A stretch of DNA of 64,000 bases from Planctomycetota bacterium (GTDB lineage: Bacteria > Planctomycetota > UBA8108 > SXIK01), in assembly GCA_965223845.1 (NCBI GenBank), contig CBDCXR010000004.1, positions 7,805,200 through 7,869,199 of the forward strand, in the 5' to 3' direction. Under the pieces are notes generated by a model. It ran no database searches and was not told the DNA's origin. It worked only from the letters and a program-made list of their open reading frames with translations. The position numbers were made by a program, and so were the translations under genes. Below are positions 24,939-30,687 of the stretch, one piece after another; positions within the stretch are counted from its first letter, which is position 1; every line of letters begins with the position of its first letter.

Positions 24939-25163
24939 TTCTCTGTCCGAGGGTTCTGCGTCCTTGGGCTCGGCTCGGACGAGGTCACCCGGCGCCATGG
25001 TTCGTGGGCGGCCGGACCCTCTCGCGCTGACGAAACGGCGTATCGATCGCTCGGGCGCGCCTCGGCTTCGACGCGGAATCAGCCCGCCGGAGCGTCGTTG
25101 CAACTCTCACCGGTGCACCTCCTTACGTCGATGGTCGGCGCGAGGTGGGCGGTTCCATTTTGC

Positions 25164-25192
25164 TTGTCGATCGACAGGCGAATCTGTACAGT
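25164..25192 (+). promoter_or_regulatory. Putative sigma70 promoter for the EF-G paralogue
   Basis: TTGTCG-N17-TACAGT in the intergenic region, about 210 nt upstream of ATG 25403. Confidence 0.45.
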
Positions 25193-25402
25193 CTACGCAT
25201 CCGTCGAAGCGATTCCCGACCGCGCCTTCGGATGCCGGTCACGGCGGCCGCGACGAGCGCCCGAGACCTCGACGCTCCCCGCCCCGGACGGACGTGCGTG
25301 CGATACGTGCACTCGCGCGCAGCGTCCCGCTGCGATGAGGTTCGACGGATGGAGCCCCGCCCGGTCGGGTGGGGCCGCTCCCCGTTTGGAGGACAACCGA
25401 GC

Positions 25403-27427
25403 ATGGCAGCGAGAACACCGCAGACGACGCGGAACGTCGCGTTCTGTGGACATGGAACGTGTGGAAAAACGACGCTGATCGAGGGTCTCCTCGCGAAGGC
25501 GAAGGCGATCTCTCGACCGGGCTCGGTCGCTGACAAATCGACGGTGTGCGACTTCGACGACCTCGAGAAGGAGAAGGGCTACAGCATCGATCTCGCGACG
25601 GCGCACCTCGATCACGGCGGGGCGACGGTCAATATCATCGATACTCCGGGATACCGCGACTACGTCGGTCAAGTGTACTCCGCCGTGCGCGCGATCGAGT
25701 GCATGATCGTCGTCGTCGACTCCGACGACGGCGTCCGGCCGAACACGCGCAAGGTGTGGGAGATCGCCGATCAGGCGGGAGTTCCGCGCATCGTCGTGAT
25801 CAATCGCTGCGATCGCGAGCATGCGAAGGACGACGAAGTCGTCGCGGAGCTCCGTGAGCAACTGAGCCCGGCTTGCCATCCGATTCAGAAGCCCGACGCG
25901 ATCGGCCCCTCGTTCTCGTCCGTATCGAGCCTCGTCGGTGGGGAAGGCGGCGAAGATCTTCAGGACGCGATCGCCGAAGCGGACGACGATCTGATGGAGC
26001 GCTACCTCGGCGGCGAGGACGTGAGCGCCGAGGAGTGGCAGAGCGGACTCGTCGCCGCCGTGAAGAGCTGCAGCGTGTTTCCCGTGCTCTACGCGGCCGG
26101 CGAGAAAGACATCGGAACTGCGGAGCTTCTCGATGCGATCGTCGAGCTCGTCCCGAATGCGAGTGAGAGCCTCGGGAGAACGTGCTCGAAGCCAGCGGAT
26201 GGTGACGCCGAGCCGGAGCAGGTCCCCGTCGCTACCGACGTCGATTCGCCGCTCTGTGGATTCGTCTTTCGCGTGGCGAGTGATCCCTACGTCGGGAAGC
26301 TGTCCTACGTGCGCATTTTTTCCGGTTCCCTCGCTGCGAACGGAACGTTCTACAATCCGAATTCGCGCAAGATGGAGAAGGCGGGCAAGTTCGTTCGGCT
26401 CCAGGGTAAGGAGCAGGAGGCCGTCGAGTCTGCGGTCGCGGGCGACGTGATCGCGCTCGTCAAGGTCGAAGGCTTGAAGGCGTTCGATACGATCACCGCG
26501 GGCGAGCCACTCGCGCTCGCAGCGCCGAAGCTGCCGATGCCGATGTACCGCCGCGCGGTGGGACCAAAGTCGAAGGCCGACGAAAAGAAGTTTGCCGAAG
26601 CGATCGCCAAGTGCATCGACGAAGATGTCATGTTCGCCGGCGACCGTGACAAGCGGACGCACGAGCTGGTCGTTTCAGGCGTGAGTCAGCTCCACCTCTC
26701 GGTGCTCTGGGATCGACTCAAGGGGCGCTACGGCGTCGAGGTCACCACGACGGAGCCGAAGACTCCGTACCTCGAGACGATCACTGTGAATGCCTCCGGG
26801 AGCTATCGTCACAAGAAGCAATCGGGCGGCGCCGGTGAGTTCGCCGAAGTGCACCTTCGACTCGAGCCGCTCGAGCGCGGCTCCGGGCACGAGTTCGTCA
26901 ACTCCGTGTTCGGCGGTGCGATCGCCGCGACCTACGTTCAGTCGGCCGAAAAGGGCATCCGGGCCGCGCTCGAGTCCGGAGTGATCGCGGGTTACCCGGT
27001 CGTCGACGTCAAGGTCGACATCTACGACGGCAAGGAGCACCCCGTCGACTCGAAGGACATCGCGTTCCAGAAGGCGGGTCGCGAGGCGTTCAAGGTCGCG
27101 TTCCAGGAGTGTAAGCCCGTGCTTCTCGAGCCGATCGTGAACCTCGAGGTGACCTTTCCGGTCGAGAACATGGGTGACATCCAGGGCGATCTCAACCGCC
27201 GCCGCGGCCGCGTCGTCGGGATGGACGCGGTCGGAAGCTTCCAGACGCTCAAGGCGCAGGCGCCCCTCGCTGAGATCTCCGACTACGCGACGACGCTCGG
27301 CTCGATGACGGCGGGACAGGGAACGTTCGACATCGAGCTGTCCCACTACGAGGTCGTCCCGTCGAACCTGCAGCAGAAGATCTGCGAGCAGGCGAAGGCG
27401 GAACTCGAGAAGGACCAGGTCGCGTAA
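25403..27427 (+). CDS. Elongation factor G paralogue (EF-G2-like, outside the str operon)
   Basis: GHGTCGKTT, DTPGY, KKQSGGAGEF, GYPVVDV, HPVDS, LLEPI; deviant G2 (KGYSI) and G4 (NRCD); SD GGAGG. Confidence 0.92.
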   Translation: MAARTPQTTRNVAFCGHGTCGKTTLIEGLLAKAKAISRPGSVADKSTVCDFDDLEKEKGYSIDLATAHLDHGGATVNIIDTPGYRDYVGQVYSAVRAIECMIVVVDSDDGVRPNTRKVWEIADQAGVPRIVVINRCDREHAKDDEVVAELREQLSPACHPIQKPDAIGPSFSSVSSLVGGEGGEDLQDAIAEADDDLMERYLGGEDVSAEEWQSGLVAAVKSCSVFPVLYAAGEKDIGTAELLDAIVELVPNASESLGRTCSKPADGDAEPEQVPVATDVDSPLCGFVFRVASDPYVGKLSYVRIFSGSLAANGTFYNPNSRKMEKAGKFVRLQGKEQEAVESAVAGDVIALVKVEGLKAFDTITAGEPLALAAPKLPMPMYRRAVGPKSKADEKKFAEAIAKCIDEDVMFAGDRDKRTHELVVSGVSQLHLSVLWDRLKGRYGVEVTTTEPKTPYLETITVNASGSYRHKKQSGGAGEFAEVHLRLEPLERGSGHEFVNSVFGGAIAATYVQSAEKGIRAALESGVIAGYPVVDVKVDIYDGKEHPVDSKDIAFQKAGREAFKVAFQECKPVLLEPIVNLEVTFPVENMGDIQGDLNRRRGRVVGMDAVGSFQTLKAQAPLAEISDYATTLGSMTAGQGTFDIELSHYEVVPSNLQQKICEQAKAELEKDQVA

Positions 27428-27436
27428 GGCGGGCGG

Positions 27437-28366
27437 GTGCGGCGTCGAGTGCTTCGGGCGAGCGGGCTCTTCGCAGGGGGCTTACTCGCGATCGTTGTTG
27501 CATCGCCGCGTTCTGCCATCGCCCAGGAGGGCGGCATCGAGGTGTTCGCGGCGGAAACGCTCTTTAGCGAAGGCTGGAGGGTTTCCGCGAGCTGGATCAC
27601 CAAGCGACGCGACCGCTTGTTTCACGGCGACAGCAGGACGAGCGATCCTCAGCATCGCTCTCTCGAAGAGCATCGCGCCGTGCTCGGAGTCGACTACGGT
27701 CTCCTCCCCGAGCTCACTCTTTCGCTTCTCGTTCCGAGCGTCTACCGGGAAGCCCGGGTCGGTTCGCGACGCCTCGAATCGTTCGGCCTCGGCGACGTCG
27801 CTGCGCTCGGAAAGTTCCGTCTCTTCAAGGTCGATGGACGGCGCCGGTCGTTCAATCTTTCGCTCGTCGGCGGACTCGAGCTCCCGACCGGGGAGACGCG
27901 CGAGCGAGACGATGGCGGGCGACTCGATCCCACGCTACAGCCGGGCTCGGGCTCGTGGGATCCATTCGCAGCGCTCACCGCGACCGGCGACCTCGATCTT
28001 TGGCGATTCGACGCGCACGCGTTTTACAAGCTGAATACCGAGGGCGCGCAGGACTTTCGCGAGGGCGACTTTTTTTCCTTCGAGGTCGACGCCGCGTATC
28101 GCTTTTTCTACACGGAGTATCCCGGCCCGACGGCGAGCGCGCGCGTCGGACTTCAGTGGCGGCAGACGGGACGTTCGAAACAGGACGGGAGAACGCGTGA
28201 AGACTCGGGGTCGCACCAGCTATTCCTCCGGCCGGGGCTTTCGTACCATCCGATTCCGGCGCTCGACGTCTCCGTTTCGGTGGACATTCCGCTCTATCAA
28301 TATTTCCACGGGCGTCAGCTCGCGCTAGACTACCGGTGGTTCGCGGCGATCGGGCTTCGCTTCTGA
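27437..28366 (+). CDS. Outer-membrane beta-barrel 'transporter' (Phenol_MetA_deg/SphA-like)
   Basis: Signal peptide (AIA-QE), GLGDVAALGKFRL, GLELPTG, QPGSGSWD, amphipathic strands, C-terminal Phe (IGLRF). Confidence 0.75.
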   Translation: MRRRVLRASGLFAGGLLAIVVASPRSAIAQEGGIEVFAAETLFSEGWRVSASWITKRRDRLFHGDSRTSDPQHRSLEEHRAVLGVDYGLLPELTLSLLVPSVYREARVGSRRLESFGLGDVAALGKFRLFKVDGRRRSFNLSLVGGLELPTGETRERDDGGRLDPTLQPGSGSWDPFAALTATGDLDLWRFDAHAFYKLNTEGAQDFREGDFFSFEVDAAYRFFYTEYPGPTASARVGLQWRQTGRSKQDGRTREDSGSHQLFLRPGLSYHPIPALDVSVSVDIPLYQYFHGRQLALDYRWFAAIGLRF

Positions 28367-28425
28367 TCGGAGCGACGACGGCGCCCCCTGACCGCGGAAA
28401 CTCACTTGTGGATCGAACTCCCCGA

Positions 28426-29001
28426 ATGAAGAACACTCATCGCGCGCTCCTCGCAACTTCGGCGCTCCTCTTCGCCGTGAGCTGCGAGTTGCCCGGACCG
28501 GCGCCGGGCGGCAAGTCGTTCGCGACGCTCACGCTCCTCGTCGACAGCTGAATCTGAAACGACAAGGCCTTCGGTCTCGAGAAGGCCCTCCGGCGCCGGG
28601 TCGGCGCCGATCGCATCGAGCTCGACGCGCGCGACGGAATCGCCCGGGCCCACATCGATCGTCCGCGCAAGATCGATCTCGCCGCCGCGGAGCGAGCGGC
28701 CTACGGAGCGGGATATACGCTGAAGCGGCTCGACATCGAGGCGGATGGGCGCGTCGAGACCGTCCGCTGCGCGGAGTGCGTCCGCGACGTGTCGGTGTTC
28801 AAGCTTTCGACGGGGCAAACGTTCGAGCTGGGCGACGCGCCGAACGGAGCAACGAGCGCGAGCGGCGAACAGCGACTGCGGATCCGGATCGAGGCGGGGA
28901 AGACGTTCCCGCCGGCGCATCCGGTGTTCTCGCCGGTGGCGGCGCCGAGCACTCCGAAAGTCACTGAGTCGTCGCCGTCGGAAGCCCGCGACGAAAGCTG
29001 A
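28426..29001 (+). CDS. Putative selenoprotein: HMA-like lipoprotein with U-x-U motif (in-frame TGA 28549-28551 and 28555-28557), 191 aa
   Basis: Lipoprotein signal (MKNTHRALLATSALLFAVSC) runs in frame through TGA-ATC-TGA into NDKAFGLEKALRRRVGADRIELD...AGYTL (HMA-like), a CAEC motif and ORF 28789..29001; SECIS-like hairpin follows. Confidence 0.72.
28566..28587 (+). promoter_or_regulatory. Candidate bacterial SECIS element
   Basis: Stem GGCCTTC/GAAGGCC with G-initiated loop GGTCTCGA; 21 and 15 nt separate the two UGAs from the loop. Confidence 0.6.
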
Positions 29002-29031
29002 AGCTACTTGCGGTCTTCTCGGAACTCCGGT

Positions 29032-30687
29032 TTATCGTTCGCGCGCGTGTCGAATTCGCGCAGCGATGCACGCGGCTACGAGGCCGACGACCGTTGCGGC
29101 TCCGAAGAAACCTGAGTAGCAACCGGCGATGGTCGCGCTCCGGGTCGCGTCGGTGGCCCAAGGATCGAGCGCTTGGTTGAGCGCGAGGAACGGAAACGCC
29201 GCCACCAGCTGCGCGGGGCTAGAGGGGGGGAGACCGACCGTCGAATCGACGAGCAGTGGGAGGACGATGTTCCACGCTGCCAGGACACCGAACGCCAAAA
29301 CGAGCGCGTTCACGCTGCGTCGACAGACGACTGAAATGAGTACACCGGTGGCACCGCAAAGAACGTAGGTGACGGCAGTGATGACGATCGCAGCGGGAAC
29401 TGCCGCGCGGGGCGCCTCATCGTCGAGGAGGGCGAACGGGAGAATTACGACGAGCGGTCCGACGAGACACGCTCCGGAGTAGAGGCTCGAGTAGAACTTC
29501 CCGATGACGATGCGAGGCATCGTGATGAGCGAGCTCCGGAGAAAGTCGATGTTTCCCTGCTCGATCTCTCGCGTGAAGCTCGTCGACGCCACTGCCGTGA
29601 CAAAGAGGAGAGTGAAGAAGAGGTTGAGGTTGAAGAGGGGGTAGAGACAAGACACGCCCCCATCTGCAGCCACCAGGGCGATGAGGAGGTAGAGCATGAA
29701 GATAGACCCGAACGCGATCACGCGGTACTGAACGCGTGAGAAGAACTCGCTGCGAAGCTCCTTCTGAAAGATGGGATTCTCGAACCCGGGAAGCGATTTT
29801 CCCAGCCGCATCAAGACACGCGTGAGCCAGGTTCGGGCGAGCTTGCGAGGTTGCTCGATGAGACCCTGAGTAACCGTCATCGGCGCGTCGCTTGTCTCAG
29901 CGTCGTAGGGGCGTCGAGTTCGTCGCAGGAGGTACCCGAGATGGGGGACCGCCACGATGGTGCTCGCGATTGAGTAGATCACGAACGCGGTCCGCAGCGA
30001 ACCGAACGGTTGGAAGGGGCCCTGGTACCCTGCGATCACGATCGGGCCGTACGGGGTGAGGGACATGATCAGCGTCCCGTCGGCCGCTCGGCCGATCGAC
30101 GCCATGAGGGCGAGAACGAGCGATAGTCCGCCGTTCCAAAAGAGAAGCCATGCGATCGAGCGGATCACCGCTCCGGCCGTCGTCTTCGCGCGAAGGGAAA
30201 CAGTGAGGCAGACGAGCGTCGAAACAGTGACGGCGATGAACGTCGTTGCGTAGGTGATGATGACCACCTGCGTGTCGAGGCCGCCGAGCAGGTAGAGGAG
30301 ACAGATGACGGGGGCGCACGCGACGATGAGAATGACCGTGTAGCCGATCGACGAGAGGAACTTGGAGAAGACGATGGAGGAGGGGCGGAGCAGCGTCGAG
30401 TAGACGAGGTCGAAGGTGTTGTTCTCGCGTTCACTCGTAAACGCGAGCGCGGAAAACGCCGGGACGATCACGAGCGCCGCCGTGAGCTGAGCAACGGCGC
30501 AGAACAGGAAGAGCTCGGCGTTTCTCACCGAATCAGCATGTGCGTTTCCGTGGAAGGTCGGCCAATTCATGAGCGGGACCGCCGCGGCACCGGCCACTCC
30601 GGCCAGGAGAAGCCAGATCGCGCGGCGCGTACGGAGATGGCCGATGAGCTCGCGGCGGAGGAGGGGAAACTCGAACAAGAGGTTCAC
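29032..30687 (-). CDS. ABC transporter permease (two ABC-2-like repeats)
   Basis: FPLLRREL / NPIFQKELR repeats; ERENNTFDLV..T.L / EIEQGNIDFL; IVFSKF / IVIGKF; multi-TM. Confidence 0.85.
   Translation of the reverse strand: MNLLFEFPLLRRELIGHLRTRRAIWLLLAGVAGAAAVPLMNWPTFHGNAHADSVRNAELFLFCAVAQLTAALVIVPAFSALAFTSERENNTFDLVYSTLLRPSSIVFSKFLSSIGYTVILIVACAPVICLLYLLGGLDTQVVIITYATTFIAVTVSTLVCLTVSLRAKTTAGAVIRSIAWLLFWNGGLSLVLALMASIGRAADGTLIMSLTPYGPIVIAGYQGPFQPFGSLRTAFVIYSIASTIVAVPHLGYLLRRTRRPYDAETSDAPMTVTQGLIEQPRKLARTWLTRVLMRLGKSLPGFENPIFQKELRSEFFSRVQYRVIAFGSIFMLYLLIALVAADGGVSCLYPLFNLNLFFTLLFVTAVASTSFTREIEQGNIDFLRSSLITMPRIVIGKFYSSLYSGACLVGPLVVILPFALLDDEAPRAAVPAAIVITAVTYVLCGATGVLISVVCRRSVNALVLAFGVLAAWNIVLPLLVDSTVGLPPSSPAQLVAAFPFLALNQALDPWATDATRSATIAGCYSGFFGAATVVGLVAACIAARIRHARER

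Follow-up and report, generated by a model that had tools for sequence, protein, structure and literature searches.

A candidate U-x-U selenolipoprotein with an HMA-like fold, encoded beside an outer-membrane barrel gene in Planctomycetota

Can two UGA codons with a single codon between them both be read as selenocysteine (Sec, U) in an exported bacterial protein? This question is raised by a 64,000-nt stretch of a Planctomycetota bacterium (assembly GCA_965223845.1, contig CBDCXR010000004.1, positions 7,805,200 to 7,869,199 of the forward strand; hereafter the window), in which a preliminary description, made from the letters alone, had noticed a hidden lipoprotein gene on the plus strand at 28426..29001. 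The gene comprises 191 codons followed by a stop TGA at 28999-29001; its frame reads TLLVDS, TGA, ATC, TGA, AAC GAC AAG, the protein going on after the second TGA with NDKAFGLEKALRRRVGADRIELDARDG...AAYGAGYTL, and includes CAEC before the stop. Both internal UGAs, at 28549-28551 (U42) and 28555-28557 (U44), are in frame with ATG 28426, and the triplet U42-I43-U44 thus occupies 28549..28557 as TGA ATC TGA. In the list of open reading frames (ORFs) made with translation table 11, the gene is broken into 28336..28551 (71 aa) and 28789..29001 (70 aa), just as had been described. In our judgement the product is quite probably an exported, lipid-anchored selenoprotein with an HMA-like domain, in which U42 and U44 would both be Sec inserted by way of a two-hairpin RNA module, and which would chelate soft metal beside a neighboring outer-membrane barrel.

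With a G+C content of 65.9% in the window, long open frames alone mean little. The G+C at codon positions 1/2/3 is 0.595/0.548/0.857 before the two TGAs and 0.703/0.541/0.838 after them, in the same frame, a codon-position signature that is that of a gene and is unchanged across the TGAs, bearing out the read-through frame first proposed; the antisense ORF at 28402..28920 yields 0.821/0.526/0.688, the wrong pattern for a gene. Assembly error, which the preliminary description had wished to see excluded by reads, finds no trace in Logan contigs from 4 runs, each covering 28300-29100 with 0 differences and 0 gaps, these being 4 DNA runs from 2 samples of 1 study and possibly the source of the assembly itself.

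Homologues were found by a six-frame search with stops read through. Among 61 related genomes, including the bacterium's own, 18 gave a match and 15 of these carry UIUND with two in-frame TGAs; a profile search of 401 genomes sampled across the phylum found 29 matches, 18 of them with U-x-U (UIUND, UTUND, and one each of UTUSE and UTUNDU), and U-x-U genes are present in 24 genomes from the two samples combined. A DNA motif pattern run against one genome per species (185,579 species) returned 37 records, 35 being true members and 2 chance matches with no gene around them. All 35 public members are metagenome-assembled genomes, labelled as Planctomycetota, -mycetes, -mycetia or -mycetaceae (29), simply as 'bacterium' (4), as Glaciecola (1) or as Deltaproteobacteria (1). 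The two labelled outside Planctomycetota (L083, Glaciecola sp.; L084, Deltaproteobacteria bacterium) are true members with the barrel gene discussed below, and their labels could reflect mis-binning or transfer; L083 clusters with Planctomycetota rows in the tree.

The 90-nt motif segments of the family number 38 distinct sequences in total, and codons were scored in 36 of them, the 2 at locus edges being left out. TGA stands at both sites in 36/36, with no Trp or other residue there, which settles in favor of conserved TGAs the question that the preliminary description had put to the homologues. The codon between the UGAs varies in the same 36 sequences (ATA 20, ATC 10, ACT 4, ACC 2). Upstream of the TGAs the sequences differ pairwise by 0.49/0.41/0.63 per site at codon positions 1/2/3, and downstream by 0.51/0.41/0.68; this divergence, dominated by position 3 on both sides, is the pattern of translated sequence. 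No full-length Cys form turned up: 0/3288 near-length candidates scored when 5.8 billion proteins were searched through a word index, with Cys put for U, and a scan of the genome contigs for CICND[KA]AF with Cys codons gave 15 stretches, none of them a relative.

At the protein level, the product of ATG 28426 begins with MKNTHRALLATSALLFAVSC, a putative signal peptide (28426..28485) ending in the lipobox Cys20 (FAVSC; Cys20 at 28483-28485). In a 14-row alignment of the family (A1), Cys20 is invariant (14/14) and each row has a basic, then hydrophobic N-terminus and a small residue at -1 of Cys20, in agreement with the lipoprotein signal of the preliminary description; the lipobox was judged by eye, and the window's own box, A-V-S-C, is not textbook. 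Also invariant in the 14 rows are Ala33, U42, U44, Asn45, Asp46, Ala48, Phe49 and Gly50 and, further along, Leu55, Arg57, Gly60, Ala61, Asp67, Ile83, Ala91, Ala95, Tyr97, Gly108 and Gln131. Ile43 is invariant in these rows and Thr takes its place in more distant members, while position 47 is variable in the family (K, A, L, M, S).

The AlphaFold2 (AF2) model built from A1 has a mean predicted local distance difference test score (pLDDT) of 79, reaching 92-96 over residues 31-130, with predicted elements in the order beta 33-39, helix 45-59, beta 63-67, beta 72-77, helix 85-94 and beta 99-115, then more strands. On the basis of AF2, Foldseek and hhalign we place an HMA-like beta-alpha-beta-beta-alpha-beta domain at 28516..28734 (about residues 31-103). 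Both Sec positions fall in the modelled loop between beta1 and helix 1, and beta1, encoded upstream of the UGAs, joins helix 1, encoded downstream, in one predicted domain with pLDDT 92-96. Nearly all Foldseek matches in the PDB were HMA proteins, among them the copper chaperone for SOD1, CopP, the N-terminal domains of CopA and ZntA, TTHA1718, PacS, CopZ, Atx1 and Ccc2a; single-domain HMA matches had probabilities of 0.99-1.00, target TM-scores of 0.61-0.81 and root-mean-square deviations of ~2-4.4 A, with modest E-values (2e-3 to 7e-2). These predictions indicate that the fold is HMA-like, as the preliminary description had supposed.

Recognizing that the U-x-U protein is too diverged for a direct sequence match, we made the link to HMA through a set of sister lipoproteins that carry the motif G-[GA]-[VI]-T-U-P-[IMV]-U or its CxxU and CxxC versions (UxxU: L021, L041, L042, L045, L047, L049 and L052; CxxU: L048 and L110; CxxC: L044/L109). 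Like the U-x-U proteins, they have a two-domain lipoprotein layout, an upstream barrel gene of the PF13557 type and, in the Sec forms, the second of the two hairpins described below; unlike them, they have their Sec or Cys at the canonical positions 44 and 47 and are matched by Pfam HMA (of 8 sisters read with Cys, 4 scored above the cut-off of 24.8 bits, 2 just below it and 2 had no match). An hhalign comparison joins the U-x-U family to these sisters with a probability of 98.8% (E 8e-17), in a register that puts Sec44 at the first Cys/Sec, Lys47 at the second and Sec42 at the Val/Met before. This reproduces the gapless register of the preliminary description, in which the second UGA stood for the first Cys, the first UGA for Met and Lys for the second Cys. 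The GMxCxxC arrangement, with two thiolate ligands three residues apart, is thus absent from the U-x-U protein: Sec44 takes the first place, the variable Lys47 the second, and Sec42 is extra. From the variation at position 47 it appears that the old second ligand has been given up. In the bacterium's own 7.9-Mb genome (92% complete) there was no PF00403 match anywhere at E <= 0.1, the same search being positive in 14/14 control genomes, and the U-x-U lipoprotein may be the only HMA-like domain of this genome.

If the two UGAs are to be read as Sec, a SECIS element (selenocysteine insertion sequence) would be expected close by, and two hairpins follow them on the plus strand. Hairpin 1, a SECIS candidate at 28566..28587, has a 7-bp stem, GGCCUUC/GAAGGCC, and an 8-nt loop, GGUCUCGA, whose first letters, GG, come 21 nt after UGA1 and 15 nt after UGA2. 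Pairing holds in 98.9% of its cells across 13 sequences, every change preserving the pair through wobble, and distant members rebuild a 7-10 bp hairpin at the same site with other letters and other residues (AFGFDQSL, AVGLDRVL, ELLGLERLF, AFGLSRAL). Hairpin 2, the other SECIS candidate, at 28591..28609, has a stem of 7-8 bp (CGGCGCCG/CGGCGCCG) and a loop around GGU; in the family this loop, [A/G]G[G/U]NN, begins 40-41 nt beyond UGA2 and 46-47 nt beyond UGA1, and the hairpin is common to U-x-U genes and the UxxU/CxxU sister genes. Over 46 distinct sequences 89.7% of its cells are paired, with two-sided changes in 6/8 pairs; cells with two-sided changes number 50, as against 20.2 +/- 4.2 in shuffles (0/500 shuffles reach 50), and slid controls, with the partner moved by 1-3 columns, are 26-49% paired. 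Hairpin 2 therefore shows compensatory changes.

Since both hairpins lie inside conserved protein sequence, they were tested against synonymous recodings that preserve the protein. The 54 nt after UGA2 are more stable than their recodings in 38/38 sequences (median z -2.46, 76% at p <= 0.05), and the same test on hairpin 1 (columns 19-51) gave z < 0 in 38/38, with a median of -2.31; as the 38 sequences are related, they do not amount to as many independent trials. In four control windows located downstream in the same genes, median z was -0.08 to -0.43, with 0-16% at p <= 0.05. A single pair of genes within one taxonomic family differs in this respect: L110, of the CxxU form, has hairpin 2, and its CxxC relative L109 is without a comparable structure (-6.3 kcal/mol). 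A scan of 28300-29100 with Rfam gave chance-level matches only and no SECIS family.

The apparatus for Sec insertion is complete in this genome, which holds SelA (453 bits), the winged-helix domain of SelB (69 bits), SelD (308 bits) and a tRNA-Sec with anticodon tca, that is, all of the selA/selB/selC/selD set on which the preliminary description had made its reading depend. TGA terminates the upstream barrel gene and the selenoprotein gene itself, and it is the commonest stop among 3094 open frames of >=500 codons (TGA 1934, TAG 882, TAA 278), which argues against a genome-wide reassignment. SelA is found in 24/24 genomes holding a U-x-U gene. Other candidate selenoproteins were noted in the same genome: in-frame TGAs occur in 7/35 matches to the AhpC/TSA family, one of these with two TGAs, and in 1/2 Rdx/SelW-like matches. 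Their contexts are WUGPC, UAGC, UPFC, RUGLT (a GPx-like gene), CVQU (a SelW/Rdx-like gene) and the double FULMU, a UxxU in a double-Sec Prx/TlpA-like gene that has two hairpins after it, of which the second carries a GGUC loop; the candidate loci are G000:C4:7394122-7394478 (L062) and C4:339807, 2926746, 4433395, 6700085, 6272189, 5691152 and 3346343.

The one constant neighbor of the family is the gene directly upstream, at 27437..28366 on the plus strand, which ends 60 nt before the selenoprotein gene and codes for a putative outer-membrane beta-barrel of the PF13557/COG4313 type (309 aa, signal peptide, C-terminal ...GLRF). A barrel orthologue lies directly upstream of the selenoprotein gene in 34/35 loci, the 35th locus starting inside the gene, and likewise in the UxxU, CxxU and CxxC loci. 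Three of four barrel orthologues match PF13557 (Phenol_MetA_deg), scoring 42.6-50.4 bits where the cut-off is 22 (E 4e-13 to 1e-10), the matching orthologues being 45-57% identical. The window's own copy gave no hmmscan match to PF13557, and its best Atlas cluster (score 0.99) is 93% PF13557. COG4313 proteins are 12-stranded outer-membrane barrels of 270-320 mature residues (PMC4493636); the window protein has 309 aa including its signal, and its fold is assigned from sequence. All-against-all clustering of the ORFs of the 35 loci left only the barrel, the selenoprotein and their antisense shadows in more than 9 loci, and the EF-G-like, ABC-2 permease, ABC ATPase and DUF4350-like genes of the window are not conserved beside the family in these loci. 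We take the barrel and the exported, lipid-anchored HMA-like (seleno)protein to be a two-gene module, as their synteny indicates. Two further observations concern the region upstream of the barrel. In the window, an EF-G-like gene at 25145-27427 (+) ends 10 nt before the barrel gene in the same direction; the first ~85 residues of its ORF are unlike EF-G and its true start is probably further in. In six loci (L069, L073, L078, L086, L092, L093) a conserved ORF of ~180-200 aa immediately precedes the barrel, at ~1.2-1.8 kb upstream of the U-x-U motif, and its copy in L069 is Cys-rich, with CC and CxxCC runs.

Bringing these elements together, we propose that the ribosome would meet UGA42 and then UGA44, that the hairpin module in the next ~60 nt would recruit SelB and Sec-tRNA, and that both UGAs would be decoded as Sec by SelA/SelB/SelC/SelD. 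The product would be exported and lipidated at Cys20, leaving ~170 mature residues with an HMA (ferredoxin-like) domain followed by a beta-rich domain. Within the ancestral GMxCxxC loop the first Cys would have become Sec44 and the second Lys, Ala, Leu or Met, with a new Sec at the Met/Val position. The two selenolates would then sit on alternate residues of an extended loop beside the invariant Asn-Asp, where they, possibly with the invariant Asp46, may chelate a soft metal or metalloid ion. Metallothioneins and the copper chaperone for SOD1 have CxC sites that resemble such alternate-residue ligands, and in ZntA a loop Asp serves as a ligand for divalent metals. We surmise that the protein would act jointly with the upstream COG4313/PF13557-type barrel, either in the periplasm or at the outer membrane, in the capture, hand-over or detoxification of a soft metal or metalloid passing the neighboring channel, be it for uptake or for defence.

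Either of the two hairpins may be the one that binds SelB. Hairpin 1 begins its stem 14 nt beyond UGA1 and 8 nt beyond UGA2, i.e. 11 +/- 3 nt, and the distance given for the minimal SECIS element of Escherichia coli is 11 nt (PMC8659212); it is therefore conceivable that a single element serves both UGAs. A bolder version of our proposal, which we hold only tentatively and consider rather doubtful as a whole, is that of an obligate double-Sec HMA protein whose ligand was shifted by way of a UTUNDU form, with SelB recruited twice within three codons, and which as the genome's only HMA-like domain would trap Hg/methyl-Hg or Cd/Cu/Zn together with the COG4313 channel. It would call for either a single SECIS module at 11 +/- 3 nt from both UGAs or a tandem pair of hairpins, and the species trapped at the outer membrane would be neutral or organometallic (Hg, methyl-Hg) or scarce soft metals.

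Several findings weigh against the proposal of a Sec-containing, metal-binding HMA-like lipoprotein: 1) the homologues are kin, and their counts are not independent; 2) U42 is without a Cys counterpart in any relative and aligns with Met/Val/Ile/Gly, and as only U44 aligns with Cys (in CxxC and CxxU relatives), the usual Sec/Cys pairing is seen for U44 alone; 3) the read-through protein matched 0 Pfam families even at E <= 10, the MerP model (TIGR02052) gave 13.7 bits (E 0.069) against a curated cut-off of 92.55, and a PDB sequence search with profile A1 found no HMA, only chance matches (archaeal histone, E 0.14), so that the HMA assignment is based on profile-profile comparison and predicted structure; 4) SelA is present in 58/61 relatives, and its co-occurrence with the U-x-U gene is thus not discriminating; 5) COG4313 channels are implicated in the uptake of hydrophobic molecules, not metal ions (PMC4493636); and 6) neither hairpin fits the published model of the bacterial SECIS (bSECIS) for both UGAs. 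This model has a 4-16 bp stem, a 3-9 nt loop with a G in the first two loop positions, a loop 16-37 nt from the UGA and a minimum free energy of <= -7.5 kcal/mol (PMC13188914, Fig. 2A legend). At 21 nt from UGA1 hairpin 1 fits, and at 15 nt from UGA2 it falls 1 nt below the range; the loop of hairpin 2 is canonical, but lies at 40-47 nt from the UGAs, outside the range of 16-37. On this last point, the UxxU sister genes and an unrelated small UxxU HMA family with the motif G-M-D-U-G-Q-U have a GGU-loop hairpin that follows the first UGA at 40 nt and the second at 31 nt, and given this spacing in the UxxU genes a distance of 40 nt seems to be tolerated in these organisms.

The main alternative accepts the same selenoprotein but takes U-x-U to be a redox centre, a diselenide/diselenol acting on a substrate that passes the channel, with no metal chelation. 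CxC motifs can be redox-active. The loss of the second HMA ligand position of CxxC to Lys/Ala/Leu/Met would suit a redox pair, as would the further CxxC in the second domain of some members. This is the CAEC of the window (28768..28779, Cys115-Cys118), predicted to lie in the turn of a beta-hairpin in the C-terminal beta-rich domain; the preliminary description had listed it as part of the protein, and it is indeed present there, but at this site CxxC occurs in 5/14 rows of A1 and is missing in 9/14, and it does not define the family. Most bacterial selenoproteins are, moreover, redox proteins (PMC13188914, section 7). Against a redox centre, the predicted fold and the closest relatives are those of metal-binding HMA domains, the extra CxxC is absent from most members, there is no thioredoxin-like fold and no conserved reductase partner nearby in the 35 loci, and the UTUNDU form of locus L043, with U at 42, 44 and 47, suggests a three-ligand site more than a redox pair. 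We thus accord a redox role a modest chance, well below that of chelation.

A very improbable account is that the UGAs are read through or bypassed without Sec, by near-cognate Trp, Cys or Arg or by re-initiation, or that they act mainly as a selenium-dependent switch, with translation usually ending at a 41-residue peptide. It may draw on the spacing of both hairpins, which is off consensus for at least one UGA, and on the expectation that two Sec insertions two codons apart should be inefficient. On the other side, the Sec machinery is complete; both UGAs are invariant, though any sense codon would serve for a non-Sec residue; U44 stands opposite Cys or Sec in the sister proteins; and hairpin 2, common to the UxxU/CxxU genes, is absent from the CxxC relative. 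As for re-initiation, GTG 28789 is where the window next has an in-frame start; this codon lies beyond the HMA domain, and its use would therefore lose this conserved part of the protein. Weakest of all, to the point of being negligible, is the idea of a pseudogene or of an assembly or sequencing artefact, with two chance nonsense changes in a former HMA gene, to which the split ORF call and the lack of a Pfam match for the read-through product lend some color, but against which stand the same two TGAs in all distinct sequences scored, from many genera, with third-position-dominated divergence on both sides, the letter-for-letter identity of the contigs of 4 runs, and a coding signature that continues past the TGAs with no frame decay downstream in the homologues.

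Returning to the chelating selenolipoprotein as the preferred reading, how may its unusual motif have arisen? In a tree with the Sec positions masked, U-x-U genes are separated from the UxxU/CxxU/CxxC genes by a branch with 94/90 support, and the comparison of motifs indicates that the U-x-U clade moved one ligand three positions upstream. Locus L043 (G334, at a contig edge, 55-72) has TGA at 42, 44 and 47, giving UTUNDU, in a gene cut by the contig start, and could be an intermediate between UxxU and U-x-U or a three-ligand site; a different 7-bp hairpin lies directly after its motif. This triple-Sec gene joins the tree near the midpoint with weak support (72/16), and the single-U genes L040 and L046 are on very long branches, their place being uncertain. 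For these reasons the order of events is only a suggestion: the tree fits a ligand shift by way of a three-Sec form. The gene tree also departs from the taxonomic families (f66 and f11, for example, are split), which hints at transfer or old paralogy.

Some side observations concern the relatives of the family. A genome of the same taxonomic family as that of the window (G002) has the UxxU sister form (L021) and the barrel gene instead of the U-x-U form. In G083 (L041/L108) the UxxU frame goes on beyond an additional TGA, where a second, weak HMA-like stretch follows (...HVTGM...), and may be a longer multi-Sec form. The small family G-M-D-U-G-Q-U, with its two TGAs, was seen in several families of the phylum (L114, L117-L120, L123, L125, L126); here too a pair of hairpins comes next, and the GGUC loop of the second lies ~31 nt beyond the second UGA.

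This locus would add an apparently uncatalogued family to the selenoproteins, one that gene callers, ending the frame at its first TGA, are unable to see. With its two UGAs 6 nt apart, it is a natural case in which to test how bacterial SelB and SECIS manage such spacing, and at what distance from a UGA a bacterial SECIS can still work. Its U42 would be a Sec that arose at a position that was never Cys, breaking the rule of Sec/Cys pairs behind most selenoprotein searches, and the module of channel and selenolate lipoprotein may be relevant to how widespread uncultured Planctomycetota deal with trace metals or mercury.

How new is the motif? The preliminary description knew of no bacterial selenoprotein with two Sec two positions apart. 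This stands as far as the catalogue goes: a 2026 review tabulates 119 prokaryotic selenoprotein families, with several CxU and UxC motifs among them and no U-x-U motif and no lipoprotein of this kind (PMC13188914, Table 1). It has to be qualified by Zhang and Gladyshev 2007 (PMC1976440), who report a rhodanese-related sulfurtransferase with U-x-U, seen as one new form in a single metagenome. UXU motifs are also given for the Sec-rich tail of eukaryotic SELENOP in a 2025 review (PMC11818150). Like the protein described here, both have two Sec with one residue between; they differ from it in their unrelated folds and contexts, and SELENOP uses a 3'-UTR SECIS. In the full texts reached by our literature search, supplements of papers not being covered, bacterial U-x-U appeared only as the rhodanese-related variant and otherwise in SELENOP, and NCBIfam release 20 contains no model matching the U-x-U protein. 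The family is thus apparently undescribed.

The metal-related entries of the review are NF041115, a cation-transporting ATPase with UxxC, a putative mercuric transport protein and MbdU (PMC13188914), NF041115 ('UxxU_metal_bind') being listed there as a metal-binding protein, UxxU with 2 Sec (Table 1). Like the U-x-U protein, NF041115 and NF045683 (MerT/CopZ fusion-like) are of HMA type and have Sec in place of metal-binding Cys, some with two close UGAs. The window protein had no match to either model at E <= 0.1 and differs from NF041115 in being U-x-U and not UxxU and in having ~190 aa, two domains and a lipoprotein signal as against a model of 74 positions; the UxxU sisters score 21.7-25.0 bits against the NF041115 cut-off of 95 and are not members. 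With the HMA metallochaperones (PF00403: CopZ, Atx1, MerP and the N-termini of CopA/ZntA) the U-x-U protein shares the predicted fold, the loop between beta1 and alpha1, the helix-1 and ...A-G-Y... signatures and a Sec44 at the first Cys of GMxCxxC, and with MerP the export. In contrast to them, it has no Pfam match, its second Cys is replaced by Lys/Ala/Leu/Met, Sec42 stands at Met/Val in the motif U-x-U-N-D, both putative ligands are Sec, and there are a lipid anchor, a second beta-rich domain and an outer-membrane barrel as neighbor. Seen in this company, it is, on our reading, a metal-binding selenoprotein of the HMA type whose double-Sec site is shifted and apparently obligate, with an architecture of its own and a fixed partner gene.

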